The translations under genes and the position numbers were made by a program. This document shows, piece by piece, positions 5,451 to 50,978 of a stretch of 64,000 bases of DNA. Below the pieces are notes generated by a model that was not told the DNA's origin, searched no databases, and saw only the letters and a program-made list of their open reading frames with translations. Positions within the stretch are counted from its first letter, which is position 1; every line of letters begins with the position of its first letter. This DNA comes from Ignavibacteria bacterium (lineage in GTDB: Bacteria; Bacteroidota; Ignavibacteria; Kapaibacteriales; Kapaibacteriaceae), in assembly GCA_013204605.1 (NCBI GenBank), contig JABMNI010000041.1, positions 170-64,169 on the forward strand, given 5' to 3'.

Positions 5451-5632
5451 GGCGTCTCCTGGATGAATGTTGATGAGATGGGTGCTAATATACTAAACTG
5501 ACCCACTGGTCGGAAGTCTAATGTGGAAATTTATTAAATCTTGCCGGGGAACTTTTGCCGGGGAAGAAAATTGGGTTTCGTAGTTTTGTCCTTCATAATC
5601 CTTCCCCTCATAAACAAAATCTTCCCTTAAGA

Positions 5633-7159
5633 ATGCAAAAAACAGCGCTGTTATCCGTTTCAGATAAGACAGGAATTACCGAACTAGCAAAACACCTACA
5701 TGACCTTGGATATCGCATAATGTCGACCGGTGGCACCGCAAAAGCGGTAAGCGAAGCCGGAATTCCGGTGGTTTCGGTGTCTACAATTACGGGCTTTCCT
5801 GAAATAATGAACGGTCGCGTAAAAACACTACACCCGAACGTTCACGGTGGACTGCTGGCAGTGATGGACAATCCGTCGCACGTAAAAGCTCTGAAGGAAC
5901 ATGGTATCGACAAAATAGATGTCCTAGTTGTAAATCTGTATCCGTTCGAAGCAACCGTGGCGAAGGCCGATGCAACACACGAAGAAGTGATAGAAAATAT
6001 CGACATCGGTGGACCAGCCATGGTGCGCGCAGCAGCAAAAAATTATTTGCACACCGTTGTTGTCGTCAACCCAGATCGGTATGCAGAGTTGACAACCATG
6101 CTCACAAATAACGACGTACCAAAAACCACTCGTCTCAATCTCGCGCTCGAAGCGTTTGCGCACACCGCTCAATACGACGCACGTATCGCGCAGTATCTAA
6201 CCACGTTTACAAAAAACGAAAACATTCGCGAGACTGCAATCCCCTTGCGCGTAGATCAACACTTGCGATACGGCGAGAACCCGCACCAAACTGCAACGCT
6301 GTACGGCGATTTCACAAAAATTTTTACACAACTGCACGGCAAGGAATTGTCGTACAATAACATCATCGACATCGACGCCGCAGCAAAACTCTGCACAGAA
6401 TTTTCACAGCCTGCCGTAGTAATCGTTAAGCACACAAACCCTTGCGGCGTGGGCATTGCAGACACCCTCACCGACGCATGGCACAAGGCCTTCGCCACCG
6501 ATACAGTAAGCCCCTTTGGCGGAATAGTTGCTGTCAACCGCGAAGTTGACAAACAATTCGCCGAAACAATTCACAGCATTTTTACCGAGGTTGTAATTGC
6601 GCCGAGTTTCTCCGCAGAGGCACTCGAAATTCTGCAAAAGAAAAAAGATCGACGTCTAATGATTTCAAACGGCGAACTACTTGCAAATAATTTTGGCAAC
6701 GATTTCAAATCTGTGTCAGGGGGCTTTCTGGTTCAATCAACTGATGCGGCATTGTTAAATGCAGGCGCCTTAAAAGTTGTAACCGAGCGCAAACCAACTA
6801 CTGATGAAGAAGCTGCCATGATGTTCGCGTGGACAATTGCAAAGCACGTAAAAAGTAACGCAATTGTATATGCCGCCGCCGATCGTACGCTTGCCATTGG
6901 TGCGGGTCAGATGTCGCGGTTAGATTCCGCTCGAATTGCCGTGCGCAAGGCTGCCGACGCTAACATCCCGTTAGACGGCTGCGCAGTAGCATCAGATGCA
7001 TTTTTTCCTTTTGCCGATGGATTGCTGCAAGCCGCCGAGGCCGGTGCCACCTGCGTTATACAACCGGGCGGATCAATCCGCGACGAAGAAGTTATTGCCG
7101 CAGCTAATGAAAAGGGGCTTGCCATGATGTTCACTGGAATGCGCCACTTCAAGCACTAA
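5633..7159 (+). CDS. purH: Bifunctional AICAR transformylase/IMP cyclohydrolase
   Basis: ALLSVSDKTG, GRVKTLHP, IDIGGP, LRYGENPHQ, KHTNPCG, SDAFFPF, RHFKH. Confidence 0.97.
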   Translation: MQKTALLSVSDKTGITELAKHLHDLGYRIMSTGGTAKAVSEAGIPVVSVSTITGFPEIMNGRVKTLHPNVHGGLLAVMDNPSHVKALKEHGIDKIDVLVVNLYPFEATVAKADATHEEVIENIDIGGPAMVRAAAKNYLHTVVVVNPDRYAELTTMLTNNDVPKTTRLNLALEAFAHTAQYDARIAQYLTTFTKNENIRETAIPLRVDQHLRYGENPHQTATLYGDFTKIFTQLHGKELSYNNIIDIDAAAKLCTEFSQPAVVIVKHTNPCGVGIADTLTDAWHKAFATDTVSPFGGIVAVNREVDKQFAETIHSIFTEVVIAPSFSAEALEILQKKKDRRLMISNGELLANNFGNDFKSVSGGFLVQSTDAALLNAGALKVVTERKPTTDEEAAMMFAWTIAKHVKSNAIVYAAADRTLAIGAGQMSRLDSARIAVRKAADANIPLDGCAVASDAFFPFADGLLQAAEAGATCVIQPGGSIRDEEVIAAANEKGLAMMFTGMRHFKH

Positions 7160-7202
7160 GCATTACTTGTTTTTCTGTATCACTATTCCTGAGTCAGAGT
7201 CT

Positions 7203-9716: not shown

Positions 9717-9753
9717 ATTTGATTTTTGATAGTCGGAGTTGTCTTCGCAATAA

Positions 9754-12582: not shown

Positions 12583-12704
12583 GCTTAGTTACGACCTCGA
12601 TGTCGCGTATTTTTGTAGTTCATTATTAAAGTCGAAATCTGACATCGCTCACACCAAATAAATCCGTTCCATTTTTACACTCGCACGTTGCATCGTTTGA
12701 CAAT

Positions 12705-13619
12705 ATGTTTTGCAACCGAGTCCGTAGCATTTTGCGTCGCAATAAATCCGCTACGCTCTTAGTTTTGCAACCTAATCAAACCGAGATAACTGAGTGTGTA
12801 GCGAGACATCACGATATCGCACAAACCCCGTGGTTGTTGAATTTACTGATTGCGTGTTGTCTGTGTTTGATTGCTACCTCATGCAAAATGGATTCTGTTC
12901 TCAACTCAACCGCAAAACTTGAAGTCTACAAACTTTCCAATACAATTATCGCAGATTCACTTCGCACAGAGTTTGCTTTGCCATCGGGATCGGAAACGAT
13001 ATATGGATTTTACGTAAAACAACCCGATACAAATCGCATAGCCCCGCACCCCGTAATTATTTTTCACCATGGCGCTGCAGACGATCTGCAATATTATTGG
13101 CCAAGGGTAGAATTACTTTTTCAAGCGGGCTTCGACGTGTGTATTTACGACTATCGTGGCTTTGGAAAAAGTACGGGAAGCAGCTCCGAGCAAGGTTTGA
13201 AAACCGATGCGCAAACGGTGCTGAATTTTGTTAGGGGGCTTGCCACGACTGATACATCATTCATAGTGCACTACGGCTTTTCAATTGGCATCGTCAATGC
13301 ACTTTATTCTGCTGCCGAATTGCATCAAGCGAAATCAGTCATTATCGAGTCAGGTTTTGCCGAAGGACGCATTGATGCAATTCACGGTGAGTTCGACAAC
13401 GAAGAAACAATTTCCAATATCCACACTCCGGTTTTAATTCTCCACGGTCACGCCGACACTATTTTCGACTACACCCGAAACGCCGTCGAACTATACGATG
13501 CAGCAAAAAACCCCAAGCGCCTCATTGGCATTCCAAATGCAAATCACGAAACCATCCCCGCAACCATGGGCACACAACAATACTTAGATTTGATAACTGT
13601 TTTTGTAAGGGGCTCATAG
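12705..13619 (+). CDS. Alpha/beta hydrolase, probable lipoprotein (start uncertain)
   Basis: FHHG, YDYRGFGKS, nucleophile elbow GFSIG, LILHGHAD, ANH; lipobox-like IATSC. Confidence 0.85.
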   Translation: MFCNRVRSILRRNKSATLLVLQPNQTEITECVARHHDIAQTPWLLNLLIACCLCLIATSCKMDSVLNSTAKLEVYKLSNTIIADSLRTEFALPSGSETIYGFYVKQPDTNRIAPHPVIIFHHGAADDLQYYWPRVELLFQAGFDVCIYDYRGFGKSTGSSSEQGLKTDAQTVLNFVRGLATTDTSFIVHYGFSIGIVNALYSAAELHQAKSVIIESGFAEGRIDAIHGEFDNEETISNIHTPVLILHGHADTIFDYTRNAVELYDAAKNPKRLIGIPNANHETIPATMGTQQYLDLITVFVRGS

Positions 13620-13620
13620 A

Positions 13621-14208
13621 ATGTTTACAGGATTAATCGAAGACGTAGGCGAAGTTGTGGAAATGGAAACCGCTGCAGACAGCGCAACGTTTACCATTCG
13701 TACAATACTTACCGACATAAAAGTAGACGATTCCATTTCCGTGAATGGGGTCTGCCTAACCGCCACCGCCGTAACAAGCGGTACGTTCCAAACCACCGCC
13801 ATTAAAGAAACACTCATCAAAACCACAGCGGGCAAACTAGTAGTGGGCTCGGCAGTAAACCTAGAACGCGCCATGCGAATTGGAGATCGCCTCGGTGGCC
13901 ACATGGTGTTGGGTCACACAGATTGCACTGGTACCATCACCTCCATTGTGAGCAATTCCCAGGGCAAAGAATTCTGGATCTCCTTCTCACCGGAATTCCG
14001 CAAGTGGCTCATCCCCGTCGGTTCGATATGTGTTAACGGCGTATCACTCACCATTGCCGAACTAACCGATACTACTTTCAAAGTAGCAATCATCCCCCAC
14101 ACACTCCAGCTCACAAACCTGGGTTTGGTTGGTGCGAATGATATGGTGAATCTGGAGTTTGACTCCATGGCAAAACACGTTGAGTCAATTATGAATTACA
14201 AATTATGA
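13621..14208 (+). CDS. ribE: Riboflavin synthase (alpha chain)
   Basis: MFTGLIE N-terminus, DSISVNGVCLT, VNLERA, GGHMVLGH, GSICVNGVSLT. Confidence 0.95.
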   Translation: MFTGLIEDVGEVVEMETAADSATFTIRTILTDIKVDDSISVNGVCLTATAVTSGTFQTTAIKETLIKTTAGKLVVGSAVNLERAMRIGDRLGGHMVLGHTDCTGTITSIVSNSQGKEFWISFSPEFRKWLIPVGSICVNGVSLTIAELTDTTFKVAIIPHTLQLTNLGLVGANDMVNLEFDSMAKHVESIMNYKL

Positions 14209-14738: not shown

Positions 14739-16745
14739 CTACAGGTTGACTTTTGCCTGTAGCAGGACGTTGGGAAGCTCGCGATATCCGGTGACGTTAA
14801 CTGTTTGAAACTCATACCAACCGCTTAATGAAAACGTGGAACCGCCGGCAGTGCGGTATCGGATTGAAGTTTCGGGCGCCCAGAAATGCACCGAGTTGAT
14901 TAGCGACGGTAGCCCTTCCACGGTCTGCAGCGTATGTTGCTGCAACGTGTACAGCCGCACGCCAAACCCCACATCCCAAATGTTTTGTCCAACGCCTTGC
15001 ATCCATGGCGTGGTGACGGCATCGCGTGCGGTTGACCCAATTGTAGTGAAGGCCAAAAATTTTATGAGATATTCGAGATTGTTCGTTTGTGGAATTTCTG
15101 AAAAACTTGCGGGTAACAGAGTGCCCCTTTCAAAATATCTTAGCAGCAACTGAGTTTCGGTGCGGATGTGCTGCGTGAGGAAAATCTTGATGGAATCGCG
15201 GTAGGAAATTTGGCGGAAACTGTAGGAGCGGACGCTGGCGCCTTGACCCTCGAAATCGTAGATGGTGTAGTTGGCCAGCACTTCGAGTTGCGGCTGCATG
15301 ATGAGCGATTTGCCGGCAATACGCACAAAGGGCGACAGCCGAATAACAGTGTTCTGATTGTTTAGAGCACTGCGTAGTGATTTGAGAAAAACCAAGTGGC
15401 CAAATTGATACGCGGCCGAAACGCCGGCGGTTAGCACCGACGAAATGCTACGGGTGTACCGTAATGATGCGAGGGCGGAAATTTCATCTCGATCATCATC
15501 ATTTAGGGGGCTTGGGGTGTCGTATTGGAGTAGCCACCAGCTCCACTCGGCTTGCAATGTATCGTGCTCTGAAAACCGATGTTCGGCACGAGCCAAGAAC
15601 CGAGTGCGCACGGTATTATTGTCGCGCTGGAACTCCTGCGCCCGAATTTGTGCGAAGTCGGTTGGAGTGATGTTATAAACCTGCGAAACACTGTTCTGTT
15701 CGTTGCGGCGGTACACAGAAGCGCCAGTCATAAGACTGGTGCTCAACGAGGTGTATGTAACAGATCCCTCAAAATCGAGCAACAATTCGCCCAGCTCACG
15801 ATTTACGGCTGTAATTGTAGCTGTTTGAATGTCCTCCTTATACAGCCTACCAATCCGGTTGGATTGCACGCTGCCTAGCCCCCTTACGGAGAAAAGTGGC
15901 GACAACACATAATCCAGATTCCCCGAAAAACTCACGCGGTTTTCGTTGCGCGCCTCCACTGCAAGTTGATTTTGCGTGCCCGAAATGGTTGTGAAATATG
16001 CCCGCTCCAGGGCGCCGTAGTTACCAGAAATAGAAAACCTCGAGCCATCGGCAATGGTCCGCGAAGCCCTGGCGTCGACATCAAAATCGGTGTTAATCCG
16101 CAAGGCGTCCATTTTGTGCCAGTCGGCAAATACCTTGCCCGACATGTCCCATTGCTCCAAATCGGCGTGGTTTAGGACCGCTTGACCCGACAAAAGTGGA
16201 CCCGTGCTGATTACTCCCAACTGGGTGGTTTGCTCGAGGCCGCCAAATGCTTCCGACCAAAAATCCTGGTCGGGTGCGTATTTCATGCCCACGGCGCCAC
16301 CTATGCGCTGTAAACTTGACAATCCCAAACTCCTCGAATCTCTCGAAACCAGCCAAGTTTGCCTAAAAAATGTGGAAAGGGGCTCAGAAATCGGGTAGGA
16401 AAATTCACTAAACAGCGCCTCGTCGTCCCGAATTGCCGTGTTTAACGTCCGAAATGCCGATCCGCGGTACACATTGCTCAATCTGAACGTTCCTTCAAAC
16501 ACCGGCACCTCAATATCCGCATTCCCTATAAAAACAAAGGTGTTAGCTATTTTATCAACGCCGAATTGTAAGGCATCCGACAACTGGCCGCGTGGCTGAC
16601 TGAACAAAAGCTGGGATTCTTGTGCAAAACTCGATGTAACAAATGCCAGAATAACGGGTATATAGCAACACATACTAAACGCAACAGCAGCAAGGCGTAC
16701 AGCCGACTCACTAATCGCGAAATATTTATTTTTAGTATGTAACAT
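14739..16745 (-). CDS. Hypothetical secreted/outer-membrane beta-strand-rich protein
   Basis: 668-aa ORF, signal peptide ending SFA-Q, amphipathic beta-strand pattern, C-terminal ...LQAKVNL. Confidence 0.7.
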   Translation of the reverse strand: MLHTKNKYFAISESAVRLAAVAFSMCCYIPVILAFVTSSFAQESQLLFSQPRGQLSDALQFGVDKIANTFVFIGNADIEVPVFEGTFRLSNVYRGSAFRTLNTAIRDDEALFSEFSYPISEPLSTFFRQTWLVSRDSRSLGLSSLQRIGGAVGMKYAPDQDFWSEAFGGLEQTTQLGVISTGPLLSGQAVLNHADLEQWDMSGKVFADWHKMDALRINTDFDVDARASRTIADGSRFSISGNYGALERAYFTTISGTQNQLAVEARNENRVSFSGNLDYVLSPLFSVRGLGSVQSNRIGRLYKEDIQTATITAVNRELGELLLDFEGSVTYTSLSTSLMTGASVYRRNEQNSVSQVYNITPTDFAQIRAQEFQRDNNTVRTRFLARAEHRFSEHDTLQAEWSWWLLQYDTPSPLNDDDRDEISALASLRYTRSISSVLTAGVSAAYQFGHLVFLKSLRSALNNQNTVIRLSPFVRIAGKSLIMQPQLEVLANYTIYDFEGQGASVRSYSFRQISYRDSIKIFLTQHIRTETQLLLRYFERGTLLPASFSEIPQTNNLEYLIKFLAFTTIGSTARDAVTTPWMQGVGQNIWDVGFGVRLYTLQQHTLQTVEGLPSLINSVHFWAPETSIRYRTAGGSTFSLSGWYEFQTVNVTGYRELPNVLLQAKVNL

Positions 16746-16825
16746 TTTTTACTTGCGTTGTCTTTACCAAAGAACTAAGTTTGGCACAGTCTTGGGAGTG
16801 GCTTCTCAGGAATAACATATAATAT

Positions 16826-18025
16826 ATGTCACAATCACCCCGCACAATATTACTGCTAGATGCAGATTCTGCACGCGCAATTGACACCGCGCAGATTTTG
16901 CTGCAGCATAGCGTTTCGGTTTTAATGGCCAACGATGTTGCTACGGCGCAGCAATTGGTCAGGCACCACCGTCCAGGCGTGGTTGTGCTAGATGGCGGAT
17001 TTCTATCCATCAAGGACCTTCGCGAAAAACTTTTCATCCACGGTTTGAATGTTGATACACCGTTTGTAATTCTTTCGCCGGACCGCGAACCACTTGCAGA
17101 AACCAACGTTCCGTACGCAATTATTTCGCGTCCGTTAACCGATGCCGGCATTACATCCTTACTTGCCATACAGGGTCTGCCCGTTCAAGGTGAAATTCCT
17201 CCAATTGTAACTCCATCGCAAACGCAGCCTTCGCTGTTGTAAGCGTTACCACACGAATATCGCACTCCTTTAACTGACATCATTGGCCAAGCTTCATTTT
17301 TGCACGGTCATGCGTCAGATTGTCCTGCCGAAGAAATCCGAGAAGTCAGTGCCGAAATCTTATCTGCCGCACGCCGGCTGCTCCGCACTACGGATAACTT
17401 TTTGATGTACGCGCAAATTGAGACGCTATCAGATAGCCCCCTACATATCGAGCGGATGCGTCAGTGCACATCGGTCGAGCCCGCGGGCATTATGTACGAC
17501 GTGGTTGTACAAAAAGCGTTGGCCCACCAACGTCAGCAAGACGTATCTATGGCGCTCGACATCGAAGGCGTGCCTATTGCTATTATGGAGCAGCACCTCG
17601 ACAAAATCACTTCGGAGTTAGTCGAAAACGCGTTGTACTTCTCGCGTCCGGGCACTCCAGTTACCGTCACCGCCACACCAAGCAAATCGGTATTCGGACT
17701 AACTTCCGGTAACGATGGCGCGTATGTTTTTTATCCCGACTCCGTTGTTTCTAGCATAGAGAACGATGACCTTGGAAATGAAATCCAAGTTTCCATCTAT
17801 CCCAACCCTTCCAATCACTTGTTCACCATCGATCTAACCGGTACAGGATTCAACCCTGCAGAAACAATCATAACCTTATTCGATGCCCAAGGAAAAAAGA
17901 TTTTTGAAAGGTTTCCAACGAACATTCATAATCAATTTAGCGTTGAAGGACTTCACAAAGGTTTGTATTTGCTTCATATCGACAATCAAACAACCAAAGC
18001 CGTTAGAAAATTGCTCGTTGACTAA
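16826..18025 (+). pseudogene. Interrupted hybrid receiver-histidine kinase fused to a T9SS C-terminal domain
   Basis: Receiver-like ORF 16826-17242 ends in TAA, but the same frame continues with H-box LPHEYRTPLTDIIG and N-box ELVENALYFS, then switches to a T9SS CTD (IYPNPS...GLYLLHI...KLLVD) in place of the G1/G2 boxes. Confidence 0.7.
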
Positions 18026-20535
18026 TTGAGTACGAGCATGGGCTCGCAATGTATGCCAGTGTTTGTTGAACAAACTACATAGTAGGTTCCGTTTTGCAAG
18101 TCCGACACATCCACTACTATACTACCTTCGTTTCCAACGCTAACTGAGTTTCCATCAATCGGTAACTCTCGCACGGTGCGTCCTAGGTAGTCGACCAATT
18201 TTAATCTCACCTGCGAAACTCCTTGACCAAGCGCACTAAAATTTACGAATCGAATGCTCGCGCTATTCGAAACCGGGTTAGGTGAAACACTTAATTTGAA
18301 TTGAGTGCTTAGATCTTTCTCATTTTCATCAATTGATGTTAAAAGCGATCGAACGTAAAGCCCTTTGTCAGTTGACACCCATAGCTGTTGCCGTGCATCA
18401 AGAGCTACACCAGAGATTCTCGTATTAAATGGAGTCACGGATTTCTCTTTCCATGACAGACCATTATCTACCGATACAAGGATAGCTTTGTCTGAGCTAG
18501 CCACGATAACAGCAGGAGCATGATCAATCGACCATGAAACATTGCTAGCTAATTCAAGGTTGTAGGATTCAGTATGTACCGATTTCCAAGTGCCACCGTT
18601 ATCGGTAGATCGAAGCAAGTACCAGTTATCCCACCTGAACTGTCCCTTATTCGACCAAACATCCCAGGTAGGTCGGGATGCCCAACATAGCAAAACATTG
18701 TCGTCAACTTGCACTACGTTCTCAATCCATGTAAGGTCAGCAGGTACGTTTGATTTTGCCCACGTAACGCCATCATTATCTGTTGTCCAAATGCCACCTG
18801 GAACTGAATCCTTCAACTCACCATCCTTTGAAATAACATACCCTCTATAACCAATCACTATTCGGCCACTGCTTAAGGGTATAATCGATGAAATAGCAGG
18901 TTTAGAAGTAGCTTCTTTATAAGCATCGGGAACGTCTGACCAGGTAGTTCCTTCATCCTCAGACATAAACAGCTTTCTAAAGCCAGCGTACAATACATTT
19001 TTTGATGGCTGGCTGGCTGCTGAAATCGTGTCCTTACGAATTGCTCGACTATTGTGCCCCTCAATCGAAAACAAACCATTACTTCTAAAGCTAAACAGGC
19101 CAAAGTCAGAAACAGCCAGTGGCGAATTTCCGATTTCGAATCTACTTCTTGATTCAGGAGTCGAGGTTAGGAGTTTTGCATATTTCATCCAGTATGGGCT
19201 ACTACCATCGTCACCAATAGTCAGAACATCCCCAAGGCTCGACAATGATAGTATACTACTGTCACGGCGTCGCACTGACAAAAACTCACGTGGTCTTTGG
19301 GGCTGTCCGTCCGCTGAGTAGCACTTCCCTGTGGGCTGCAAAACACCACGTTCAAGATCTACTTTATTCAGCATCGTTGAAACACCAGTGGATAGTAACT
19401 CTTCTCCATTCCACAATAAAGAATATAGCCTAGTTCCACTCACAACAACTTTTGATTGGCCCGTTTTAACGTTAAAAAGAACGGTGTTGTTAATACTCTG
19501 AAGCCCCTCTGTGTGACTATACTTCATAACAACCGAGTCACCCTTCACAGCAAAACCACCGGGCCCCCTGTTCACTGCACTCACACGTGTTTCAAGAGGC
19601 AAACGGTAAGCTGTAAATGAACTTCCAGTTGCTACAACTACGTACCCTTTGTCAAGCGCCATAACAACTACGGAGTCATTTATTCTTACCAAATAACTGC
19701 TGACGTTTGAGACATCGATTTTGGGGAATGGAATGGCTGCTTCACTAGGCACATCTAACTCGTTCAAGTACACCCACGAATCACTTTCACTTGCCCTACG
19801 AGCAAGGCCAACTATCAAATTCGTGTTTGAGCCAGCCAACGAAACGGCACTGCCTTTTTCTAAAAATTCAGTATAACCTACAGAAGTAGGCAAGCTGTTT
19901 GTCGCTTCCCAACGCTTTGTTTCTAGATTCAACCAGTGCCATGATGAATCCGCTTGAGCAAACGCGAAAAATCCTTTGGTTGGGTTATAACTCGTAGATA
20001 AGAAATGCGCCGTTTGTCCCCGATACGATTTCAAAGAATCTGGAATCGGCGCGCGAACCCAAGTAACACCACGATCTGTTGAATATGAATCCAAAATTGC
20101 GAACGCATTTGGTTCGAACCCTCTGAAATTGTTACCGTCAGCTATTCCTCCACCAACGTTTTGACTATCCAAATCTTCAAAAGTCAACACCCTAGGTGAA
20201 TCGGAGGGCTTCGTGAATAGGTACGTTGTACCTCTAGTCTCAGTAGCGAATGTTCCTCCTGAAATAATCCAAGTGCCATCTGCCAACCACGCATTTTGAT
20301 TGCTTGCCACTATCCTTTTGAAAGACGAGTCCGGCAAGAACTGGTGCATTTCATCTGGTGTTGATCCCTTGAACAATCCAAATCCCGTTGTCACTGTACC
20401 CCACGTAGCATGCCACCTACAATATTGCCCATCAAATACTGAAGAATATTCTGTCCACCAATAGTCTGGCAATGGTTGCTGTGCTTGCGTAACGATGTTT
20501 AACGCAAAGAACATTGTCAAAATCAAGATTTTCAT
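18022..20535 (-). CDS. T9SS type A cargo protein, BNR/Asp-box beta-propeller
   Basis: Signal peptide MKILILTMFF...AQ, Asp-boxes SxDxGxTW (STDRGVTW, SEDEGTTW, STDNGGTW), CTD VSPNPVS...GTYYVV; SD AAGAGG upstream of ATG 20535. Confidence 0.85.
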   Translation of the reverse strand: MKILILTMFFALNIVTQAQQPLPDYWWTEYSSVFDGQYCRWHATWGTVTTGFGLFKGSTPDEMHQFLPDSSFKRIVASNQNAWLADGTWIISGGTFATETRGTTYLFTKPSDSPRVLTFEDLDSQNVGGGIADGNNFRGFEPNAFAILDSYSTDRGVTWVRAPIPDSLKSYRGQTAHFLSTSYNPTKGFFAFAQADSSWHWLNLETKRWEATNSLPTSVGYTEFLEKGSAVSLAGSNTNLIVGLARRASESDSWVYLNELDVPSEAAIPFPKIDVSNVSSYLVRINDSVVVMALDKGYVVVATGSSFTAYRLPLETRVSAVNRGPGGFAVKGDSVVMKYSHTEGLQSINNTVLFNVKTGQSKVVVSGTRLYSLLWNGEELLSTGVSTMLNKVDLERGVLQPTGKCYSADGQPQRPREFLSVRRRDSSILSLSSLGDVLTIGDDGSSPYWMKYAKLLTSTPESRSRFEIGNSPLAVSDFGLFSFRSNGLFSIEGHNSRAIRKDTISAASQPSKNVLYAGFRKLFMSEDEGTTWSDVPDAYKEATSKPAISSIIPLSSGRIVIGYRGYVISKDGELKDSVPGGIWTTDNDGVTWAKSNVPADLTWIENVVQVDDNVLLCWASRPTWDVWSNKGQFRWDNWYLLRSTDNGGTWKSVHTESYNLELASNVSWSIDHAPAVIVASSDKAILVSVDNGLSWKEKSVTPFNTRISGVALDARQQLWVSTDKGLYVRSLLTSIDENEKDLSTQFKLSVSPNPVSNSASIRFVNFSALGQGVSQVRLKLVDYLGRTVRELPIDGNSVSVGNEGSIVVDVSDLQNGTYYVVCSTNTGIHCEPMLVLN

Positions 20536-20552
20536 TTTGTGGTTCCTCTTAA

Positions 20553-21274
20553 TTATGGAGTGCAGCATGGTAAGCCTCCCAGTTTGCAACATTCGTCGAA
20601 ATAAGTATTGCACTCGCCAGTACAAGCCGTGTTATCGCCCTCACAAACAGTACGTTGAAAACTACAGCAATCAACTGGAGATGTTCTGCAGTATCGTCTT
20701 TCAACAAAACAATGTCGGGCACAAGAGTTATCACATGCATAGTAACAAAACGGAGCGTCGTAATGTTTATCCAAACATTTAGGTAGGGCTAGAATATGGC
20801 AGTAAACATTGTTGTTCGTAAGATTTGTACATGTGTTACCAATGCCGCAATTCGGAAGGGTCACACCCAGAATGTTGTTGCAACAAAGATCAGTGCCTCT
20901 TATGATTGCTTGGTAAATAGCAGTCAAGCCTTGGTTTTTCAATTCCTGGGGAACACATATCCGTTTAATCCAAGTAATCGCATTTACACCATAATTACAA
21001 TCCAGCCCTCCACCGGCAGTGCATGGGTTATCGATTAGTGTCGAACTAGAAGCATATTGCGTACACATCCAAACAGAAGCAGTATAGTTAGTCCCCGCAA
21101 AACATATCGTAAAATCCGTTTGCACACCTTCACAATCGCAATCCAATGGCATTTGTTTTGGACACTGATCTATAGGATACTCACATTGTGCTTTCGCATC
21201 ACTGGCGGTTAACCCCAACATAACCAATGAAAGGACTAGCAGAGAGAGAGAGAGAAAAAAAAAACCTTTTTCAC
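20553..21274 (-). pseudogene. Cys-rich secreted protein A, frameshifted at T10/(CT)7 tract (phase-variable OFF candidate)
   Basis: GAGGT SD then GTG at 21274 gives MKKVFFFSLSLC*; removing one CT gives MKKVFFFSLSLLVLSLVMLGLTASDAKA-QC and joins a ~29-Cys ORF. Confidence 0.75.
21241..21264. repeat. Microsatellite (AG)7 + A10 (coding strand T10-(CT)7)
   Basis: Read directly at 21241-21254 and 21255-21264. Confidence 0.95.
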
Positions 21275-21379
21275 ATAAACCTCACCGTTTAACTGAAAGA
21301 AAATTTAATTTCAGTAATAATACGTGATTTTGGGAAAATGTCAAGAAATTGTTTTCACACCACTTCGAGTTTTGCAAAC
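21266..21379. repeat. ~113-bp direct repeat, copy 1 (pcrA 3' end copy + promoter + leader)
   Basis: Near-identical to 24541-24652. Confidence 0.92.
21317..21344 (-). promoter_or_regulatory. sigma70-like promoter of cassette A
   Basis: TTGACA-16 nt-TATTAT on the minus strand. Confidence 0.6.
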
Positions 21380-21389
21380 TCTGGTTCTC

Positions 21390-23804
21390 CTATCTATTCA
21401 AATACACCTTGCCAGTTACTTCACCACATGCTGTAGACAGCGTGTAACAGATCAATCCAGTAAGGTTATGAGGAAACAAAGCCTCTATTCTATCGCTTGA
21501 AGCAATTCCTTTACCTGTGTGCACTAATTCACCGGCATACGTGTAAGCCTTAATGGAGAATGACCGATCGGTACAAGACGGGAAGAGATTTGCACCCTCC
21601 GTGTTTTGAGTTGGCTCATCCTTGATCGACGTAAAAATAGTTGGAGTGTACTTGTACAAACTTCTGTTAGTTCCGAAAAAGTATATGTCACTACCATCCA
21701 CTGCAAAACCCTGGATACGGTACGGATTACTCCAATTCGACACCGCAGAGCCATTCCAATTTTTGCATCCATCAGTACTTGTAAATAGCAAGGAGTATTG
21801 GTAGAGCATTAAGGTTCGCTCCTCATTGCGATCCACTTGTTGCACCAACAAACTTCCGGGATCCACGGGTTTGCCATTCAAGCTCCACTTCATGCGCTCA
21901 GCGCTCCACGCTGATGAATCTGCATTGAAAGAACAGAAGTAATTCACCACGGGATCAAACAAATTTGTAGATCCGCGAGTTCCCAACATGTAGGCAATCT
22001 GATTTTTCAAATGAAGATCGTACCCGGTATGTGGAAGAAAAGTCCGCACTACAACTGGGACTCTGGGCAAAATACTTACAGATCCATCATCAAACAACTC
22101 GAATACTTCCAGTGTATCCGGGATGCGATTAGTTTGGGTTCTTTGTTTATTTAACAAGCTCACTCGTAGCAGTACCTTACCGTTCTCCAACTTATCAATC
22201 CCAATTAGTCGGTATATAATTGAATCTTTATAGTCAATCTTTGGCAACACCCATGTTGTCCCATTATCGGTAGAAATCAATGGAGCAAAAAAGCCCCATC
22301 TCGATGATGAAAAATCACTACTACTTGTTGCGGCAGCCAGCAATCCGGAATTGGTGCGAATTAATGTACCGACGTACTCTACCTTAAAGTTGTCGATACG
22401 GACCGTTTGTTCTTGCCAACTGCTCCCCGCATCAGAACTTGTTGCATAATGATTGTCATTGGAACTTCCACTCAGGAAGAGAATATTGCCTTGTTTATTC
22501 AATACTGTGTATCCAGTTTCAAACGTAGCTAAAGTGTCCTCTTGGCAATTCACTTCAGCAACGTTACTTAGTCTCAACACAGAGCATGACACTGGAGTAT
22601 CAAATTGACCAACCACCCTGGTATTTAATACAAGAAAAGAACCTTCATCAGACTTTATTGCGCCACGCCATTCATTCTTGAAACTTCGAAATGTTCCCAG
22701 TGAATCTATCTCGAAATTTCCGATAGCCGATTGCACATCTTGAAACCGCCACGATTCACCACCATTACGTGTATGATGAATTGCAATGTTTTGTCCATTG
22801 AATTGAGAGCCACAAAACACAACACCATCGGTGTCATTTAACATTACCACGCCAATTGCAGGAGTTGCGGGGTATAGGGACTGATAGTTTCCGTCTACTA
22901 ATTTGTCTGTCAATAGTGCCTTGTTCCAAAAAGCCCCGCCATTGACGGATTTTGCGACAATCTGAAAGTAGGCATTATCACTCTCTTTCTTCCACAGATT
23001 TCCGCAAACATAAATTCTCCCAGAAGAATCCATGGAGAGCTTTCTAAATGTATCGTCGCGCTCAACTCCATCCGCGTACGGGTAAGGAGTAGGTGGAATT
23101 AGATGATATACTTGATCCCATGTTTTTGCGCTATCTATTGACCTAAATACACGCCCTAGCGCACCACAAAGTAGTACCACGCTATCAGAAACAACTAATG
23201 CACTTGTAATGTGCATTGTGTCCAAGGGTGCAGGTCCATCAAACCACGTTTTCCCGGCGTCTCTCGAAAACATACTCTTCCCATGCTGACCAGGTACTGC
23301 AATTACGTCTCCCTTCATACTTAGCGAACCGCAAACAAAGTCAGACTTGTTTTGCACCACTCTCCATTCGTTAGTTGCACTACTCAACACAAGTATTTTG
23401 CCGTCGGTAGTGGCAACTACAATTCCATCTGGATGAGCCTGAACTCCTGAAATACTGGAGCTAACTGGTGCATTGATTGACTCCCAAATATTCGCGTTCT
23501 TAGGTCGCCTCCACACGTTTCCACCCTCACCAGCAGCCCACACGTCAACCTCGGTAACCAAGATTGACGTGATTTCGAATTGAACTGGCAAGCATTCCCA
23601 TTCCCAAGTCATGCTACGATAGTCGTAGGTTCCTACGCGCCCAAACCCGCCACCAGCTATAACGTGAATTGAGTCGAGTTTTTCTGCGGCCATCAGATAT
23701 CTGGCCCCATATTTACAAGGGAGTATCTCCCTCTGCACCGATTGTGCACTTAAAGTAGCGCACAGCAAAAAGTTAAATACTATTCCAACTAGAATTTTTT
23801 TCAT
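21390..23804 (-). CDS. Secreted BNR/YCF48-like beta-propeller protein with degenerate T9SS-like C-terminus
   Basis: Signal peptide MKKILVGIV...LSA-Q, repeated SxDxGxTW boxes (SRDAGKTW, STDNGTTW, SSDAGSSW), C-terminal YTYAGELV...KVYLNR. Confidence 0.8.
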   Translation of the reverse strand: MKKILVGIVFNFLLCATLSAQSVQREILPCKYGARYLMAAEKLDSIHVIAGGGFGRVGTYDYRSMTWEWECLPVQFEITSILVTEVDVWAAGEGGNVWRRPKNANIWESINAPVSSSISGVQAHPDGIVVATTDGKILVLSSATNEWRVVQNKSDFVCGSLSMKGDVIAVPGQHGKSMFSRDAGKTWFDGPAPLDTMHITSALVVSDSVVLLCGALGRVFRSIDSAKTWDQVYHLIPPTPYPYADGVERDDTFRKLSMDSSGRIYVCGNLWKKESDNAYFQIVAKSVNGGAFWNKALLTDKLVDGNYQSLYPATPAIGVVMLNDTDGVVFCGSQFNGQNIAIHHTRNGGESWRFQDVQSAIGNFEIDSLGTFRSFKNEWRGAIKSDEGSFLVLNTRVVGQFDTPVSCSVLRLSNVAEVNCQEDTLATFETGYTVLNKQGNILFLSGSSNDNHYATSSDAGSSWQEQTVRIDNFKVEYVGTLIRTNSGLLAAATSSSDFSSSRWGFFAPLISTDNGTTWVLPKIDYKDSIIYRLIGIDKLENGKVLLRVSLLNKQRTQTNRIPDTLEVFELFDDGSVSILPRVPVVVRTFLPHTGYDLHLKNQIAYMLGTRGSTNLFDPVVNYFCSFNADSSAWSAERMKWSLNGKPVDPGSLLVQQVDRNEERTLMLYQYSLLFTSTDGCKNWNGSAVSNWSNPYRIQGFAVDGSDIYFFGTNRSLYKYTPTIFTSIKDEPTQNTEGANLFPSCTDRSFSIKAYTYAGELVHTGKGIASSDRIEALFPHNLTGLICYTLSTACGEVTGKVYLNR

Positions 23805-23807
23805 AGC

Positions 23808-24549
23808 TCAATTCACACAGTTAACTACTTTGCAGTTGTTATAAATTGGGTCAGTACATGGTGGACCTTGCATCAGCCACGGTCCATCCCAGAATTGAAC
23901 CTGACTTTGCGAACTCTTACAAAATGTGCGGACTCTATAACAGCAACCGTTATTCAAGCAAGTGGTGAAACCTACAGACGCGTTTGCGTAAGGTGTAGGA
24001 GGCGGCAATGGGAACCAAGAGGCTTGAATCAACATCAAATAAGTCGACCAAGAGATTGTAGGATCGTACGACTGCGTGGTGTGCCCGCCACCAGGGGTCT
24101 CCCACGTTATATAGGTTGCCATGCAATTTGCCACTTTGGAATAAATTAATGATACAGTTGAAGGACATGGACAACACTCTGGATCGGCTGTCCATTTAGC
24201 CATTTCTTTATTCGCAATAACCTTATAGATCCCGTCACGTAATCTCCCATCATTGATGGCAGCATTTATTGCATTTGCATCTGCACAGCCGGAAGGTGAA
24301 ACGACTTCCATATTTACTGAATAGTCTAGCCACTCTATTTGATTACACCTTGTCTGATAAGGCATGAAAACCTCAACAGAACACGGCGGAGAAGTTGAAA
24401 TTTCCACAAATGCAGTCAAGGGATGATAGACCCAAGGTTCAGCACATGGCGGCAACCCACCCCAATTGCAGCCTTCTTGGGCAGCAACTTGATTTGTCAG
24501 TGCACTAAGTAGAAATACCAGAGAGAGAGAGAGAGAAAATCTTTTTCAC
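23808..24549 (-). pseudogene. Cys-rich secreted protein B, frameshifted at (CT)8 tract (phase-variable OFF candidate)
   Basis: GTG at 24549 gives MKKIFSLSLSGIST*; adding one CT gives MKKIFSLSLSLVFLLSALTNQVAA-QEGC and joins a 16-Cys ORF. Confidence 0.75.
24520..24535. repeat. Microsatellite (AG)8 (coding strand (CT)8)
   Basis: Read directly. Confidence 0.95.
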
Positions 24550-24652
24550 ATAAACCTCACCGTTTAACTGAAAGAAAATTTAATTTCGGTAATAATACGT
24601 GATTTTTGGAAAAAGTCAAGAGATTTTTTACACCACTTCCAGCTTTGCAAAC
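24541..24652. repeat. ~113-bp direct repeat, copy 2 (includes true pcrA 3' end)
   Basis: Near-identical to 21266-21379. Confidence 0.92.
24592..24619 (-). promoter_or_regulatory. sigma70-like promoter of cassette B
   Basis: TTGACT-16 nt-TATTAT on the minus strand. Confidence 0.55.
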
Positions 24653-26928
24653 GCTAGCATGAGTTGCTTGCGCTGCCCATTATTGAACATCACAGTTGCC
24701 TTGGCGCTTTGCTCTGATCCGCTCAAAGCCATGATGGTGCCAATTCCAAACATGGGATGGTTTACCTGCTGCCCAACGGTGTAGCCGTTTACGGAGTCTT
24801 TGTTTGCCGGACGGATGGATTTTGGAATGGGGGCGTTGTAGCGCGGTGCCGAAGGTAACTGACTGTATGTTTCGCCCTCGGGCATTTGACTGAATTCAGA
24901 TTGACGTTTAGGAGAGCCCCTTTCCCAAACATTTTGGACAGCATGCGCCTCACTGTGCGGGGTGCGGTTGGAGTGATTCCCAACTACACAGGCGGGATCG
25001 ATCTCGCCGATAAACATTGATGGTCGCGAAAAATTCATTTCGCCAAAACGGAACCGGCGCTCGGCATACGTGAGCACGAGGTGCTGTTTTGCGCGCGTAA
25101 TTCCAACGTAAAATAACCGACGCTCTTCCTCGCGTTCATCTATGTCTTGCTCGGCCTTGGCCAGCGGGAACAGACCCTGTTCCATGCCGGCGATGACTAC
25201 CATGGGGTACTCCAGACCCTTCGCGGCGTGCATCGTCATCATACTTACTCGGTTGCCACCAGTCGCCTCATCGTCGGCATCCGATAGCAACGAAATCTGC
25301 TCGATGTATTGCGACAACGTAAGCGTCTCATCAAACTCGTACTGCTCCTGAATGTGGCTGAGCAATCGGTCGATGTTATTCCAGCGGTCTTGGGACTCGT
25401 CGGTGTTTTGCAGACGGTACATATCGGCCAACCCGGTTTGCGCCATAAATCTCTGAGCAACTAAGGCAGGGGGCTCGGTGTCGATATCAACTTGGTTGCG
25501 CGTTATGAGTTCAACAAAATTTTGCACCGAGGTTGCAGAGCGCTTTTGAATGCCAACTACATTCTCAGCAATTTTAAGCGTTTCGAATAATGTGGTATTT
25601 GTTTCAACGGCGTAGTCTTGCAGACGCTGCATGGTAGTGTTGCCGATTCCCCTGCTTGGCTCGTTGATGATGCGCAAAATACTTTCGGTATCGGAAGGGT
25701 TCACCAGTACTCGCAGATACGCCAACGTGTCCTTGATTTCTTTGCGTTTGTAAAAGCTAACACCACTCACAATATGGTAGGCAACGTTGGCGCGGCGCAT
25801 AGCATCCTCGATGAGTTGCGACTGTGCGTTGGTTCGGTACAAAACCGCAACATCACTTGCTTGAAGATTGCTTTCGCGCATCGCGGTCCGCACAACCTTC
25901 ATAATGGTTTCGGCTTCTTCTCGATCATCTCTACAACCGAGCACGAGAATTTTTTCACCCTCGGCGTTATCGGTCCACAATTCTTTTTTCAACCGACCCG
26001 AATTATTCTTTATCACACTATCGGCTGCTGCAAGAATAGTTTTTGTACTCCGATAATTCTGCTCGAGTCGAACGGTTGTTGCCTTTGGATAATCCCTTTC
26101 GAAATCTAAAATATTCTGAATATCAGCACCGCGCCACCGATAAATACTTTGGGCGTCATCGCCCACCACACATAGGTTCCGGTACTTGCGCGCCAACAAT
26201 TCCACAGCCTTATACTGCGCCTTATTTGTATCCTGATACTCATCAACCATGATGTACCTGAAGCGCTCCTGTAACTGGTCAAGCACATCGGGTTGCTGCT
26301 GCAAAAGTCGAATCATATTCAGCAGCAAATCATCGAAGTCCATGGCATTACTTCTCTTCAATCGCGCTTCGTATTCCTGAAAAATCTGCGCCGTCTGCTT
26401 TTCAATTACACTATTGGCTCCATTCGAATACTGTTGCCACGATATCATAGCATTCTTCGCGGAACTTATTCTACCGCGCACTCCATTTGCCGGCAGCACT
26501 TGTTGCGAAATACCAAGCTGAACCATGATGGCTTTTACGGCCGACAACTGATCATCGGTATCGTAAATACTAAAGCTTCGGTTGTAGCCTATCAAATCTG
26601 CATATTGCCTGAGTATTCGTGCAAACACCGAATGAAACGTGCCCGCCATTACGCCATACACCGTATCGCCCACCAGGTGTGTTATCCGCTCGCGCATTTC
26701 CTTGGCGGCCTTGTTCGTAAACGTCAACGCCAGAATACTCGACGGATGAATTCCCTGCTGAAGCAGATACGCAATTCTGAACGTCAGTACGCGCGTCTTT
26801 CCACTGCCCGCCCCCGCAATAATCAACACCGGACCCTCCGTTGTTACGGCGGCCTTGCGCTGATGTTCGTTCAATCCCTCTAGAAGTGATTCGACCGTAT
26901 TTTTTGTAAGAGCAGATTGTGACAACAT
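24628..26928 (-). CDS. pcrA: ATP-dependent DNA helicase PcrA/UvrD
   Basis: AGAGSGKT, TFTNKAA, VDEYQDTN, VGDDAQSIY, EQNYRST, MTMHAAKGLEY, EERRLFYVGITRA, C-terminal Tudor-like HPMFGIG. Confidence 0.96.
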   Translation of the reverse strand: MLSQSALTKNTVESLLEGLNEHQRKAAVTTEGPVLIIAGAGSGKTRVLTFRIAYLLQQGIHPSSILALTFTNKAAKEMRERITHLVGDTVYGVMAGTFHSVFARILRQYADLIGYNRSFSIYDTDDQLSAVKAIMVQLGISQQVLPANGVRGRISSAKNAMISWQQYSNGANSVIEKQTAQIFQEYEARLKRSNAMDFDDLLLNMIRLLQQQPDVLDQLQERFRYIMVDEYQDTNKAQYKAVELLARKYRNLCVVGDDAQSIYRWRGADIQNILDFERDYPKATTVRLEQNYRSTKTILAAADSVIKNNSGRLKKELWTDNAEGEKILVLGCRDDREEAETIMKVVRTAMRESNLQASDVAVLYRTNAQSQLIEDAMRRANVAYHIVSGVSFYKRKEIKDTLAYLRVLVNPSDTESILRIINEPSRGIGNTTMQRLQDYAVETNTTLFETLKIAENVVGIQKRSATSVQNFVELITRNQVDIDTEPPALVAQRFMAQTGLADMYRLQNTDESQDRWNNIDRLLSHIQEQYEFDETLTLSQYIEQISLLSDADDEATGGNRVSMMTMHAAKGLEYPMVVIAGMEQGLFPLAKAEQDIDEREEERRLFYVGITRAKQHLVLTYAERRFRFGEMNFSRPSMFIGEIDPACVVGNHSNRTPHSEAHAVQNVWERGSPKRQSEFSQMPEGETYSQLPSAPRYNAPIPKSIRPANKDSVNGYTVGQQVNHPMFGIGTIMALSGSEQSAKATVMFNNGQRKQLMLAFAKLEVV

Positions 26929-26954
26929 GTTCAATTTCTATTTTTTAAGGGGCT

Positions 26955-30687: not shown

Positions 30688-30734
30688 TGCCGGGTAACTA
30701 TCCATCCCAACAAGCACCAGGCTCTTCGTAAATT

Positions 30735-30815
30735 TGCATTGGGATTTTTGCATTGGCATTATGAATTGGCATTGATGATTGGCATTCTCAGATTTACACA
30801 TTTCCACATTTACAC
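30735..30815. repeat. Low-complexity intergenic repeats (TTGGCA / ACATTT units)
   Basis: Repeated ATTGGC and CACATTT units; same family at 31455-31525, 39030-39110, 44570-44980, 57995-58270, 59655-59715. Confidence 0.75.
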
Positions 30816-31463
30816 ATGATCCTCGCTCCGTCTTTACTCGCCGCCGATTTCGGCCACCTATCCAGTCAAATCGCCGAGTGCGAAGCAGCCGGAGCAGACA
30901 TTCTGCATATCGACGTCATGGACGGACACTTTGTCCCGCCCATCTCGTTCGGCGTCAGCCTCATGCCGGCAATTCGCGCCGCAACCACATTGCCCCTTGA
31001 CGTACACCTCATGGTCACCAACCCCGACCACCACATCCCGCAATTTGCCGACGCCGGAGCCAACTGGATTTCCGTTCACGCCGAAGTATGCCCGCACCTC
31101 CACCGCACGCTCCAATCCATCCGCCAACGCGGATGTCGCGCCGGTATCGTGCTCAACCCCGCCACTCCCCTCACCTACGCTACCGAAGCCGCCGAACACG
31201 CCGACTTCATCCTCCTCATGAGCGTCAACCCCGGCTATGGCGGCCAAGCCTTCATCCCCTCGTTCTTCGAACGCTGCAGTTCTTTGCGTGAGAGTCTAAA
31301 TGAAAAGGGGCTTTCCCACATCCAAATAGAAGTCGACGGCGGCGTAAACGCCTCCAACATCAAAGCCGTGTGCGATGCCGGAGCCGAAATAATCGTCAGC
31401 GGAAGCGGAGTGTTTAAAGGGGATATTGCGCAGAACATCTTACAGATTCGGGCAAATGTGTAA
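30816..31463 (+). CDS. rpe: Ribulose-phosphate 3-epimerase
   Basis: APSLLAADF, HIDVMDGHFVP, DVHLMV, MSVNPGYGGQ, EVDGG. Confidence 0.96.
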   Translation: MILAPSLLAADFGHLSSQIAECEAAGADILHIDVMDGHFVPPISFGVSLMPAIRAATTLPLDVHLMVTNPDHHIPQFADAGANWISVHAEVCPHLHRTLQSIRQRGCRAGIVLNPATPLTYATEAAEHADFILLMSVNPGYGGQAFIPSFFERCSSLRESLNEKGLSHIQIEVDGGVNASNIKAVCDAGAEIIVSGSGVFKGDIAQNILQIRANV

Positions 31464-31522
31464 ATGTGGAAATCTGAGAATGCCAATGGCAAATGCAAAT
31501 GTGGAAATGCGTAAATCTGAGA

Positions 31523-39032: not shown

Positions 39033-39110
39033 TATGAATTACGAATTATGAATTACGAATTGAGGATTAAGGATTGGCATTCTCACATCTACACATTTTC
39101 ACATTGGGCT

Positions 39111-44862: not shown

Positions 44863-44992
44863 TTTGCGTGAATTGGTTCGACAAAGTAACTTCGTTAACA
44901 CACTACATTATAAATTGTTGATTGGCATTGGCATTGGCATTGGCATTGGCATTCTCATATTTACACATTTACACATTTGACTTCCCCACATT

Positions 44993-50928: not shown

Positions 50929-50978
50929 AAACACCTCAATGTTAAAAACTTAAACGCAGTATTTATACTGAATTGACA

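Follow-up and report, generated by a model that had tools for sequence, protein, structure and literature searches.

The window examined here is a 64,000-nucleotide (nt) stretch of DNA from an uncultured freshwater bacterium of the Ignavibacteria (GenBank assembly GCA_013204605.1, contig JABMNI010000041.1, positions 170 to 64,169 of the forward strand). Its subject is the region downstream of the helicase gene pcrA, where two operons for putative secreted proteins, P and D, are each headed by a copy of the same leader module, and where the copy farther from pcrA, termed distal, begins with a scrap of the pcrA 3' end. Genome searches covered the whole assembly (2.69 Mb in 86 contigs; here G000, in which the window contig is C36), and the Pfam scan covered 43 open reading frames (ORFs) of the window. 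The genes and modules of the locus, in their order of reading from pcrA, are as follows.

24628-26934, minus strand: pcrA, an intact UvrD/PcrA helicase gene (768 amino acids, aa), whose last eight codons (24628-24651) are the apparent source of the duplicated scrap
24511-24655, minus strand: proximal leader module, with the pcrA tail (24628-24651), a promoter-like site TTGACT-16-TATTAT (24592-24619), a 5' untranslated region (5'UTR) and the Shine-Dalgarno (SD) sequence GAGG
24549-24547, minus strand: GTG of the proximal module, followed by AAA AAG, TTTT and (CT)8 (24520-24535)
23808-24549, minus strand: smallP, a Cys-rich secreted protein of type P, with a mature ORF of 215 aa (23808-24455) that is +1 out of frame at (CT)8
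21390-23804, minus strand: largeP, an 804-aa BNR/Sortilin-like propeller protein with an N-terminal signal peptide and no type IX secretion system (T9SS) tail detected
21236-21382, minus strand: distal leader module, with the copy of the pcrA tail (21355-21378), a promoter-like site TTGACA-16-TATTAT (21317-21344), a 5'UTR and an SD sequence
21274-21272, minus strand: GTG of the distal module, followed by AAA AAG, T10 (21255-21264) and (CT)7 (21241-21254)
20553-21274, minus strand: smallD, a Cys-rich secreted protein of type D (about 30 conserved Cys), with a mature ORF of 224 aa (20553-21227) that is +2 out of frame at T10(CT)7
18022-20535, minus strand: largeD, a propeller protein of the BNR/Sortilin type (837 aa), in which a C-terminal T9SS-type sorting domain scores at threshold

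The shared module is about 138 nt long (21245-21382 and 24520-24655), and its two copies, the only ones in the genome, are 90% identical. The repeat finder used on the window reported them in two parts, one of 114 nt (21245-21358 versus 24520-24633; 91% identical, spacing 3275 nt) and one of 31 nt (21352-21382 versus 24625-24655; 87% identical, spacing 3273 nt). A 146-nt block query against the assembly was placed in two positions (E 1.3e-71 and 1.6e-47), the nine remaining rows all having E > 1. Homology between the copies starts at the G before pcrA codon F762 and stops at the (CT)n tract, with unrelated sequence on both flanks. The repeat thus does not end with the gene: it continues for 113 nt past pcrA, through the promoter and start codon, into the signal peptide of the cargo. 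At its other end the distal copy starts 10 nt after the stop codon of largeP.

The scrap in the distal copy (21355-21378, minus strand) has the sequence TTTGCAAAACTCGAAGTGGTGTGA, and the real pcrA end (24628-24651, minus strand) has the sequence TTTGCAAAGCTGGAAGTGGTGTAA. Both encode FAKLEVV followed by a stop codon, they are identical at 21 of 24 positions, and the three differences (AAA/AAG, CTC/CTG and TGA/TAA) are all silent. The gene itself has the domains of a complete UvrD/PcrA helicase (UvrD-helicase, 1e-90; UvrD_C, 3.7e-74; and a C-terminal PcrA_UvrD_tudor at residues 720-763) and is 62-66% identical to the pcrA of most genomes of the same family. Beyond the scrap lie promoter-like sites that match the sigma70 consensus at 11 of 12 positions in the distal copy and at 10 of 12 in the proximal copy; these are the top sigma70-like matches within 17600-24900, one for each module. 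A run of 47 nt that spans GGTGAGG (the SD sequence), TTTAT and GTG AAA AAG is identical between the copies, after which the distal copy reads G T10 (CT)7 and the proximal copy A TTTT (CT)8. The differences between the modules are concentrated in the first 66 nt, where there are eight events (the three in the scrap, one 2-nt indel and four substitutions), and the next 47 nt have none.

These results bear out most of what an earlier note, made from the letters alone, had described at this place, namely a duplicated FAKLEVV-stop with silent-only differences, a near-identical promoter, leader, SD sequence and GTG AAA AAG behind both copies, and a period of about 3.27 kb. The genome-wide search for the block that the note had proposed is the one that returned two copies only in 2.69 Mb. 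No RNA element was indicated in the 5'UTR, as there were zero Rfam matches in 17000-25000 and the leader folds no better than shuffles. A weak match to the leader in a genome of the same order (G031; 80% over 49 nt, E 4.3e-4) was rejected: it falls where a signal-peptide gene of no relation begins (ATG TTA AAA AGA TTT TCT...), and likely reflects convergence of A-rich signal-peptide starts.

Translation from the GTG ends after 12 codons in the distal copy and after 14 codons in the proximal copy, and the intact mature ORFs lie in frame +2 (distal, 224 aa) and +1 (proximal, 215 aa) relative to it. The T10(CT)7 and (CT)8 tracts sit 3-7 codons downstream of the GTG, and all four bodies of the two operons are intact ORFs of 215-837 aa, so that the frame is broken exactly at these simple sequence repeats (SSRs) and nowhere else. 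By computation, six or nine CT units would bring either copy into frame, as would T11 for the distal copy. The corrected frames give N-termini that, read by eye, look like ordinary signal peptides, MKKVFFFSLSL-LVLSLVMLGLTASDAKA|QC... for the distal protein and MKKIFSLSLSL-VFLLSALTNQVAA|QEGC... for the proximal one. We prefer the GTG as the probable start codon, because its distance of 5 nt from GAGG equals the distance between GAGG and ATG at a third CT locus in the window.

That third locus belongs to a small set. Only 10 dinucleotide tracts of at least six units are present in the 2.69 Mb, three of them of the CT/AG type, and all three are at signal-peptide starts: the two modules and a (CT)9 tract at 50902-50919, directly after the ATG ATT AAA with which another signal-peptide ORF begins. 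This ORF, which the assembly shows out of frame, heads an operon (45982-50930, minus strand) for a 382-aa protein without family, an M4 (thermolysin-like) peptidase and a BNR/T9SS protein. The geometry of its leader (GAGGTGTTTATG) is similar to that of the module.

The same position is occupied by CT tracts in other members of the family. Tracts of at least eight CT units occur in just 7 of 51 family genomes, own genome included, for a total of 11 tracts, of which seven are within the first codons of a signal peptide (both of those in our genome, all three in G006 and both in G046); the other four, in G010, G047, G023 and G059, are not evidently at signal-peptide starts. The position is therefore shared by three genera. 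In G006, a complete genome from another genus, all three tracts head P-type operons, and two near-identical paralogs differ in unit number, the one with (CT)11 being in frame and the one with (CT)13 not; the third, with (CT)18, is also out of frame. The P-type paralogs on contig C39 of our own genome have 8-nt repeats at the same position, (CTGCGCCT)4 and (CTGTGCCT)3, one out of frame and one in frame. Altogether, 7 of the 19 leaders inspected have such a repeat in the signal-peptide start. On these comparisons between genomes, phase variation appears well supported for this type of operon. The earlier note had called the cassettes self-promoted and phase variable, and this was a reasonable description to the extent that each unit has a promoter-like site (10-11 of 12) and an SSR; the switching itself, like the use of the promoter and start codon and the route of recombination, is inferred from the sequence and was not seen directly.

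The two units headed by the module are different two-gene operon types rather than diverged duplicates. Each has a gene for a Cys-rich small secreted protein and one for a BNR-propeller protein of about 800 aa, and in a self-comparison of the two units the 146-nt block is the only shared stretch. The small proteins are unrelated (BLASTP E 0.2; hhalign profile-profile probability 0.3%) and the large ones have similarity of the BNR-propeller type only (E 0.006). The description of the cargo genes in the earlier note as highly divergent after a shared leader consequently falls short, since the small proteins are unrelated at the profile level and the large ones are only propeller-like. Each type has relatives elsewhere: smallP is 36-40% and largeP 27-28% identical to paralogs on contig C39, smallD is 62% identical to a homolog in G046 (another genus), and largeD is about 30% identical to the large genes that adjoin smallD homologs in relatives. 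Genes of the smallP type are present in 11 of the 50 family genomes used for homolog counts and those of the smallD type in 18, often in several copies and sometimes in tandem, and in the loci fetched from relatives the small and large genes pair by type. The module, 90% identical between its copies, is far younger than the split between P and D.

Database searches gave the large proteins partial assignments. For largeD, Pfam returned Sortilin-Vps10 (34.5 bits), BNR (29.5) and Por_Secre_tail (27.0, with a cut-off of 27), and TIGR04183 scored 17.9 bits, under its cut-off of 23; for largeP the matches to PSII_BNR, BNR and Sortilin were all below threshold, and its C-terminal 100 aa alone had zero Pfam matches. 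The 14 homologs of smallD are all unnamed or annotated as hypothetical, and smallP has no match in Pfam or NCBIfam. Confident AlphaFold2 models were obtained for both small proteins (pLDDT 86.6 for smallP and 83.2 for smallD), and searches with them returned no clear match in the PDB, the best values being a Foldseek E of 0.45 and a VIA Z of 3.9 for smallD and a VIA Z of 5.2 for smallP. The two models have the same two weak top matches (9cr1_A and 6jis_A), in the same chain region and without sequence similarity, and smallP and smallD may share one novel disulfide-rich fold. Predictions of a complex between largeD (residues 21-745) and smallD (18-222) scored 0.01, 0.67 and 0.30 in separate runs and argue neither for nor against binding. 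From these features the operons are best regarded as putative secreted or surface two-protein modules, and it is speculation on our part that their stochastic expression is useful against phages or grazers, or for patchy substrates. The GC content of the cassettes (0.40-0.46, versus a genome mean of 0.461) gives no strong foreign signal.

Related operons are arranged in tandem at other loci as well. Contig C39 of our genome has a second array, of two P-type operons (4248-13649 of locus L028, G000:C39:16000-34000), with the 8-nt repeats in the signal-peptide start. Its two units are separated by a 420-aa thioredoxin/redoxin-like gene read from the other strand, in keeping with a disulfide-rich cargo. 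A DDE transposase gene about 500 nt upstream of this array was considered as a link to an insertion sequence and rejected, as the gene occurs only once and nothing in the window resembles it to a meaningful degree. At another locus (L109, G006:C1:2017000-2028000) a whole D-type unit has recently been duplicated in tandem (3.6 kb at 90% identity, with a third partial copy at 96.6%), and these cassettes therefore also amplify by ordinary tandem duplication. A further tandem array, in another genome (L113), has a 53-nt leader that is 98% identical between units with diverged bodies, so that there too conservation is greater in the leader than in the body.

Other repeats in the assembly touch on similar genes. 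Tracts of (AC)13, (AC)13, (GT)12 and (AC)8 are at C20:4532-4557, C35:38-63, C64:43601-43624 and C66:12485-12500, respectively. Those on C20, C64 and C66 are about 50-60 nt upstream of ORFs that open with a signal peptide, two of these peptides ending in ...AAQC/AAQTC as in the Cys-rich proteins, and these tracts could possibly be promoter-spacing switches. The end of C20 and the start of C35 share a tract, at which the assembly breaks. Similarly, 6 of 24 plus-strand matches to the small genes in relatives begin less than 500 nt from a contig start (for example G013:C1:32, G046:C19:145 and G045:C191:174), and assembly breaks thus tend to fall at these leaders, as repeated or length-variable sequence would lead one to expect. 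G000 also contains a G58 homopolymer and a C18 run, both probably artefacts of sequencing or assembly. Short motifs of 6-8 nt (AATGTGGA, CATTTTCA, ATTTACAC and ATTGGC) form arrays in many intergenic regions and also flank the (AC)13 tract on C35; in the window the arrays are at the following positions.

30733-30817, 31452-31510, 39078-39105, 44573-44978, 51292-51317, 57995-58273 and 59656-59683: motif arrays

On the side away from pcrA the two operons are bordered by a damaged gene and a fragment.

16826-17690, plus strand: histidine-kinase/receiver pseudogene, with an in-frame stop codon (17240-17242) and without its last ~78 aa (most of HATPase_c)
17690-18025, plus strand: orphan fragment of a T9SS C-terminal domain, which continues the reading frame of the truncated kinase gene

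Synteny at pcrA was checked in six relatives, and in all six pcrA is followed by a convergent gene for a 362-401-aa receiver/histidine kinase and then by the neighbors that the window also has; the match covers both halves of the kinase gene in five of them and the N-terminal half only in the sixth (L124). When the kinases of four relatives were compared with the window by tblastn, they gave one frame with 52-69% identity and homology ending at about 17677-17720. No P or D cassette is beside pcrA in any of the six relatives. As the kinase gene is truncated and the relatives are without the cassettes, about 6.9 kb (17690-24627) has been inserted here, with collateral damage, and both operons lie within this insertion between pcrA and the now-broken kinase gene. 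The orphan fragment (Por_Secre_tail, 2.4e-12, at residues 166-240 of the ORF 17300-18025) is the left scar of the inserted DNA; no close paralog of it was found in the genome or in the fetched loci. The comparison of the pcrA-downstream region that the earlier note had suggested thus established that the two operons are absent from six relatives, and the stacking of two different operons that it proposed holds good within these ~6.9 kb. The number of cassettes is not comparable between strains, as no genome of the same genus is among the 41 relatives or the 41 family genomes and the best pcrA identity is 66%.

The arrangement is real and was seen in parts in a second study. Logan contigs and unitigs from four runs were compared with the window, one of which (X1) is possibly from the source sample, while X2 and X3 are from aquatic studies. 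In X1 three unitigs cover the locus (16500-21295; 21283-24570, of 3288 nt; and 24558 onward) at depths of 34.2, 36.5 and 33.4, and the shared 47-mer has a depth of 81.8, versus ~34-36 for its neighbors. The 3288-nt unitig spans the joint between the end of largeP and the pcrA scrap, and this joint is therefore not a scaffolding artefact. In X3, which comes from a different study, a 283-nt contig with 0 differences (24480-24762) connects pcrA with the P body and includes (CT)8, and X2 has identical pieces of D, P and pcrA, along with one P piece with four differences. The tandem order is supported because the assembly contig and the pcrA-to-P contig of X3 leave the scrap copy as the only connection for D. 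The earlier note had envisaged junction reads or an excised 3.27-kb circle, and neither a joint that skips the unit nor one that circularizes it was present in the contigs of the four runs, and the X1 depths stand at 1:1:1; Logan data at the locus come as contigs only, and contigs drop rare variants. No variation in content was seen in the second study, at a coverage of 2-6x.

We consider it probable, although well short of secure, that these are slipped-strand phase-variable operons sharing a leader module that was copied by general recombination. A module of ~138 nt would have been copied as a unit from the position adjacent to pcrA, with the last 24 nt of the gene as a passenger, and would have been joined to a foreign body at or near the CT tract; a junction at or near the repeat is suggested because the 3' limit of the module falls there. 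The event would have combined homologous and illegitimate recombination, with no integrase. Gain or loss of CT units would then bring the body into or out of register with the start codon, and each operon would be an independently switchable contingency locus.

The three silent differences bear on where the copied module came from. Silent changes account for 18 of the 72 single substitutions possible in the eight codons. On the assumption of one dead and one constrained copy, any given difference has a probability of 0.4 of being silent, and three of three being silent has P = 0.064; if all changes are on the dead copy, the value is P = 0.016. The real pcrA ends of relatives are of both kinds, with TTTGCAAAACTCGAAGTG at three loci, from two genomes that belong to one genus, and AAGCTG at others, and because relatives carry both versions of the two variable codons, the polarity of the differences is not settable. 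The claim of the earlier note that one copy is a formerly functional pcrA allele hence receives a mild lean (P = 0.064) rather than proof. A history involving a second, diverged functional allele from a sister lineage has, in our estimate, about an even chance. Such a history could have taken either of two courses. In the first, two alleles of the locus would have been stacked, the distal module and D deriving from the pcrA locus of that lineage, for instance through one-sided illegitimate recombination with a single odd joint, at the end of largeP. In the second, an in-genome duplication would have been followed by homologous replacement of the real pcrA 3' end and the first part of the proximal module, which would also explain the clustering of the differences in the first 66 nt. 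A purely in-genome copy seems to us somewhat less probable. Site-specific insertion is given very little weight.

Several observations weigh against the proposed explanation. In both copies an ATG is located 2 nt upstream of the GTG, directly followed by TGA, which is a normal stop codon here (it terminates 18 of the 39 long ORFs of the window), and the proximal body at (CT)8 shares the frame of this upstream ATG; the choice of start codon is to this extent uncertain. No variation in CT-tract length was seen at the locus, as the X1 unitigs have no indel rows and the X3 contig also has (CT)8. None of the three CT loci of the window is in frame in the consensus, and the kinase gene next to the operons has become a pseudogene. 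Taken alone, the k=31 unitig graph would fit an arrangement of pcrA next to D plus a 3.27-kb circle as well. For the function of the small proteins, Pfam, NCBIfam and the ESM Atlas returned nothing usable. Finally, the 3/3 silent differences lean toward a second functional allele.

Some of these observations are what would be expected of a decaying island, in which the operons are being lost and the frame breaks in the T and CT runs are ordinary indels at mutational hot spots, without adaptive switching. Decay is a live alternative because three CT loci are out of frame and the kinase gene is broken, and it would also account for the same (CT)8 in an independent sample and for the ATG TGA in both leaders. 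However, the four bodies (215-837 aa) are intact with breaks exactly in the SSRs only, the 47 nt around the SD sequence and start codon are identical between copies versus eight differences in the 66 nt upstream, and the CT tracts recur at the same position in three genera, with one G006 paralog in frame, which together make decay improbable in our view. We give still less credence to an integron-like array or integrative element of the kind proposed in the earlier note, in which the 138-nt block would be an attachment site and the 3.27-kb unit a mobile cassette that restores pcrA with a recombinase acting in trans. Direct repeats with the 3' end of the target gene do bound the P unit, the differences in the scrap are silent only, the unitig topology with its 47-mer depth of 81.8 (versus ~34-36) is as expected for a circularizable unit, and three tyrosine recombinases (PF00589) are encoded elsewhere in the genome, on C6, C16 and C70. 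None of these is on C36, though, and no recombinase or transposase domain was found among the 43 ORFs, in accord with the statement of the earlier note that the window has no integrase; the 3.27-kb unit itself contains smallP and largeP only. Nor does the block contain inverted repeats of the attC kind: all that it has is an A/T-rich pair of 10 nt and, in the 5'UTR, a palindrome of 12 nt, and its fold is not significant (z -0.4 and -0.1). Furthermore, the repeat crosses the promoter, SD sequence and start codon and ends at an SSR within a signal peptide, unlike att cores. The block occurs only twice in the genome, neither of two probes taken from it (22-mer and 30-mer) had an exact match in public genome contigs or metagenome contigs, and relatives from the same family match only the pcrA-coding part of the block query. 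The P and D operons elsewhere in the genome and in relatives have different leaders and are not beside pcrA, and no deletion or circle joint was seen in the contigs, with depths of 1:1:1. We conclude that the scrap preserves the trace of a recombination joint and is not an attachment site.

Two further explanations we regard as scarcely credible. One is plain tandem duplication of a single cassette, with its boundary in pcrA, after which diversifying selection would have driven the bodies extremely far apart while selection conserved the leader. The 3.27-kb period and the same two-gene architecture are in keeping with this, and the whole-unit duplication at L109 (90% over 3.6 kb) provides a case in a relative. 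Against it, the small proteins are unrelated at the profile level, and a non-coding scrap that is still identical at 21 of 24 positions cannot be as old as the split between P and D; each type also has much closer relatives elsewhere (62% identity of smallD to the G046 homolog and 40% of smallP to a C39 paralog), and duplication with divergence is thereby excluded. The other is an assembly artefact, in which two strain variants of the pcrA-downstream region would have been joined through the repeat. The assembly does consist of 86 contigs and the exact 47-nt repeat is a branching node in k=31 unitigs, but within one 3288-nt unitig the scrap copy is directly preceded by the end of largeP, and not by pcrA, the depths (34.2, 36.5 and 33.4) are equal, and the X3 contig ties pcrA to P, leaving only the scrap copy to connect to D.

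A more far-reaching extension of the phase-variable reading, which we think unlikely but worth stating, is that the leader module is a portable, integrase-free "landing pad", common in this lineage to different alleles of the pcrA-downstream locus, whose homology lets lineages swap and stack operons for secreted proteins by ordinary recombination. If it were true, arrays of unrelated surface or secreted modules would form, each with its own stochastic CT switch, as a recombination-based functional analogue of the integron in free-living freshwater bacteria, and the silent-only divergence of the scrap would be a trace of the working pcrA of the donor.

SSR contingency loci are textbook biology for host-adapted pathogens such as Helicobacter, Neisseria, Haemophilus and Campylobacter. 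At the locus described here the same CT device, after an MKK signal-peptide start, heads secreted or surface operons in a freshwater bacterium, and it does so in at least three genera of the family, which suggests stochastic surface variation in free-living bacteria, perhaps against phages or grazers. Among the papers listed by one full-text search, none joined type IX secretion to contingency loci or SSRs, which is not proof that no such paper exists. The passenger scrap of pcrA would be a rare physical record of a complete module of promoter, leader and switch copied onto an unrelated operon, and it would show how expression switches spread between genes.

Among known systems, the Neisseria opa genes have CTCTT repeats in the leader peptide and are switched on and off by these SSRs member by member. 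In the vlp arrays of Mycoplasma hyorhinis a conserved promoter and signal-peptide region stands before divergent tandem bodies, and a poly(A) tract in the promoter acts as the switch. The likeness to our locus would lie in the SSR switching and in a conserved 5' module before variable bodies. Unlike the two unrelated operons here, the bodies of opa and of vlp each belong to one gene family, and to our knowledge neither system carries a passenger fragment of a neighboring gene. The locus resembles an integron or a chromosomal cassette array in that unrelated cargo units stand in tandem, separated by repeats, beside a fixed chromosomal point; it differs in having no intI, attI or attC, a putative promoter for each unit, two units only, and a repeat that consists of the promoter and leader. 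Islands and prophages that integrate into tRNA genes or other gene ends, and duplicate the 3' end of the target as they do so, are similar in that a direct repeat with the last codons of the target flanks 3.27 kb and the target gene is intact, whereas here there is no integrase, the repeat extends 113 nt into the expression signals of the cargo, and no presence/absence polymorphism was seen in contigs. Homology-facilitated illegitimate recombination, a process of naturally transformable bacteria, has in common with our locus one illegitimate joint (between the end of largeP and pcrA codon 762) with the other end in homologous DNA; this one-joint pattern fits a scrap of pcrA derived from a donor, and the process is a candidate for the copying route.

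The closest precedent is probably the babB gene of Helicobacter pylori with its CT-repeat leader and chimeras. As set out in PMC4552749, CT repeats occur shortly after an ATG AAA AAA start and their number sets the frame, and gene conversion gives rise to babBA and babBC chimeras in which other bodies come under the CT switch. H. pylori oipA, like babB a gene of the Hop family, is likewise described in PMC10564699 as phase variable, through CT repeats in the 5' part that codes for the signal peptide. With babB, as far as that account goes, our locus would share a CT unit just after an MKK-type signal-peptide start and a 5' end that is movable onto another body. It would differ in that the bodies are unrelated operons for Cys-rich and BNR-propeller proteins rather than paralogous outer-membrane adhesins, in that the promoter and a scrap of the upstream housekeeping gene are part of what was copied and two units are stacked in tandem, and in that the organism is an uncultured freshwater bacterium, with switching deduced from its sequence, and not a host-adapted pathogen. 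SSR contingency loci with leader swapping are thus already known, and it is the organism and the cargo that are unusual here.

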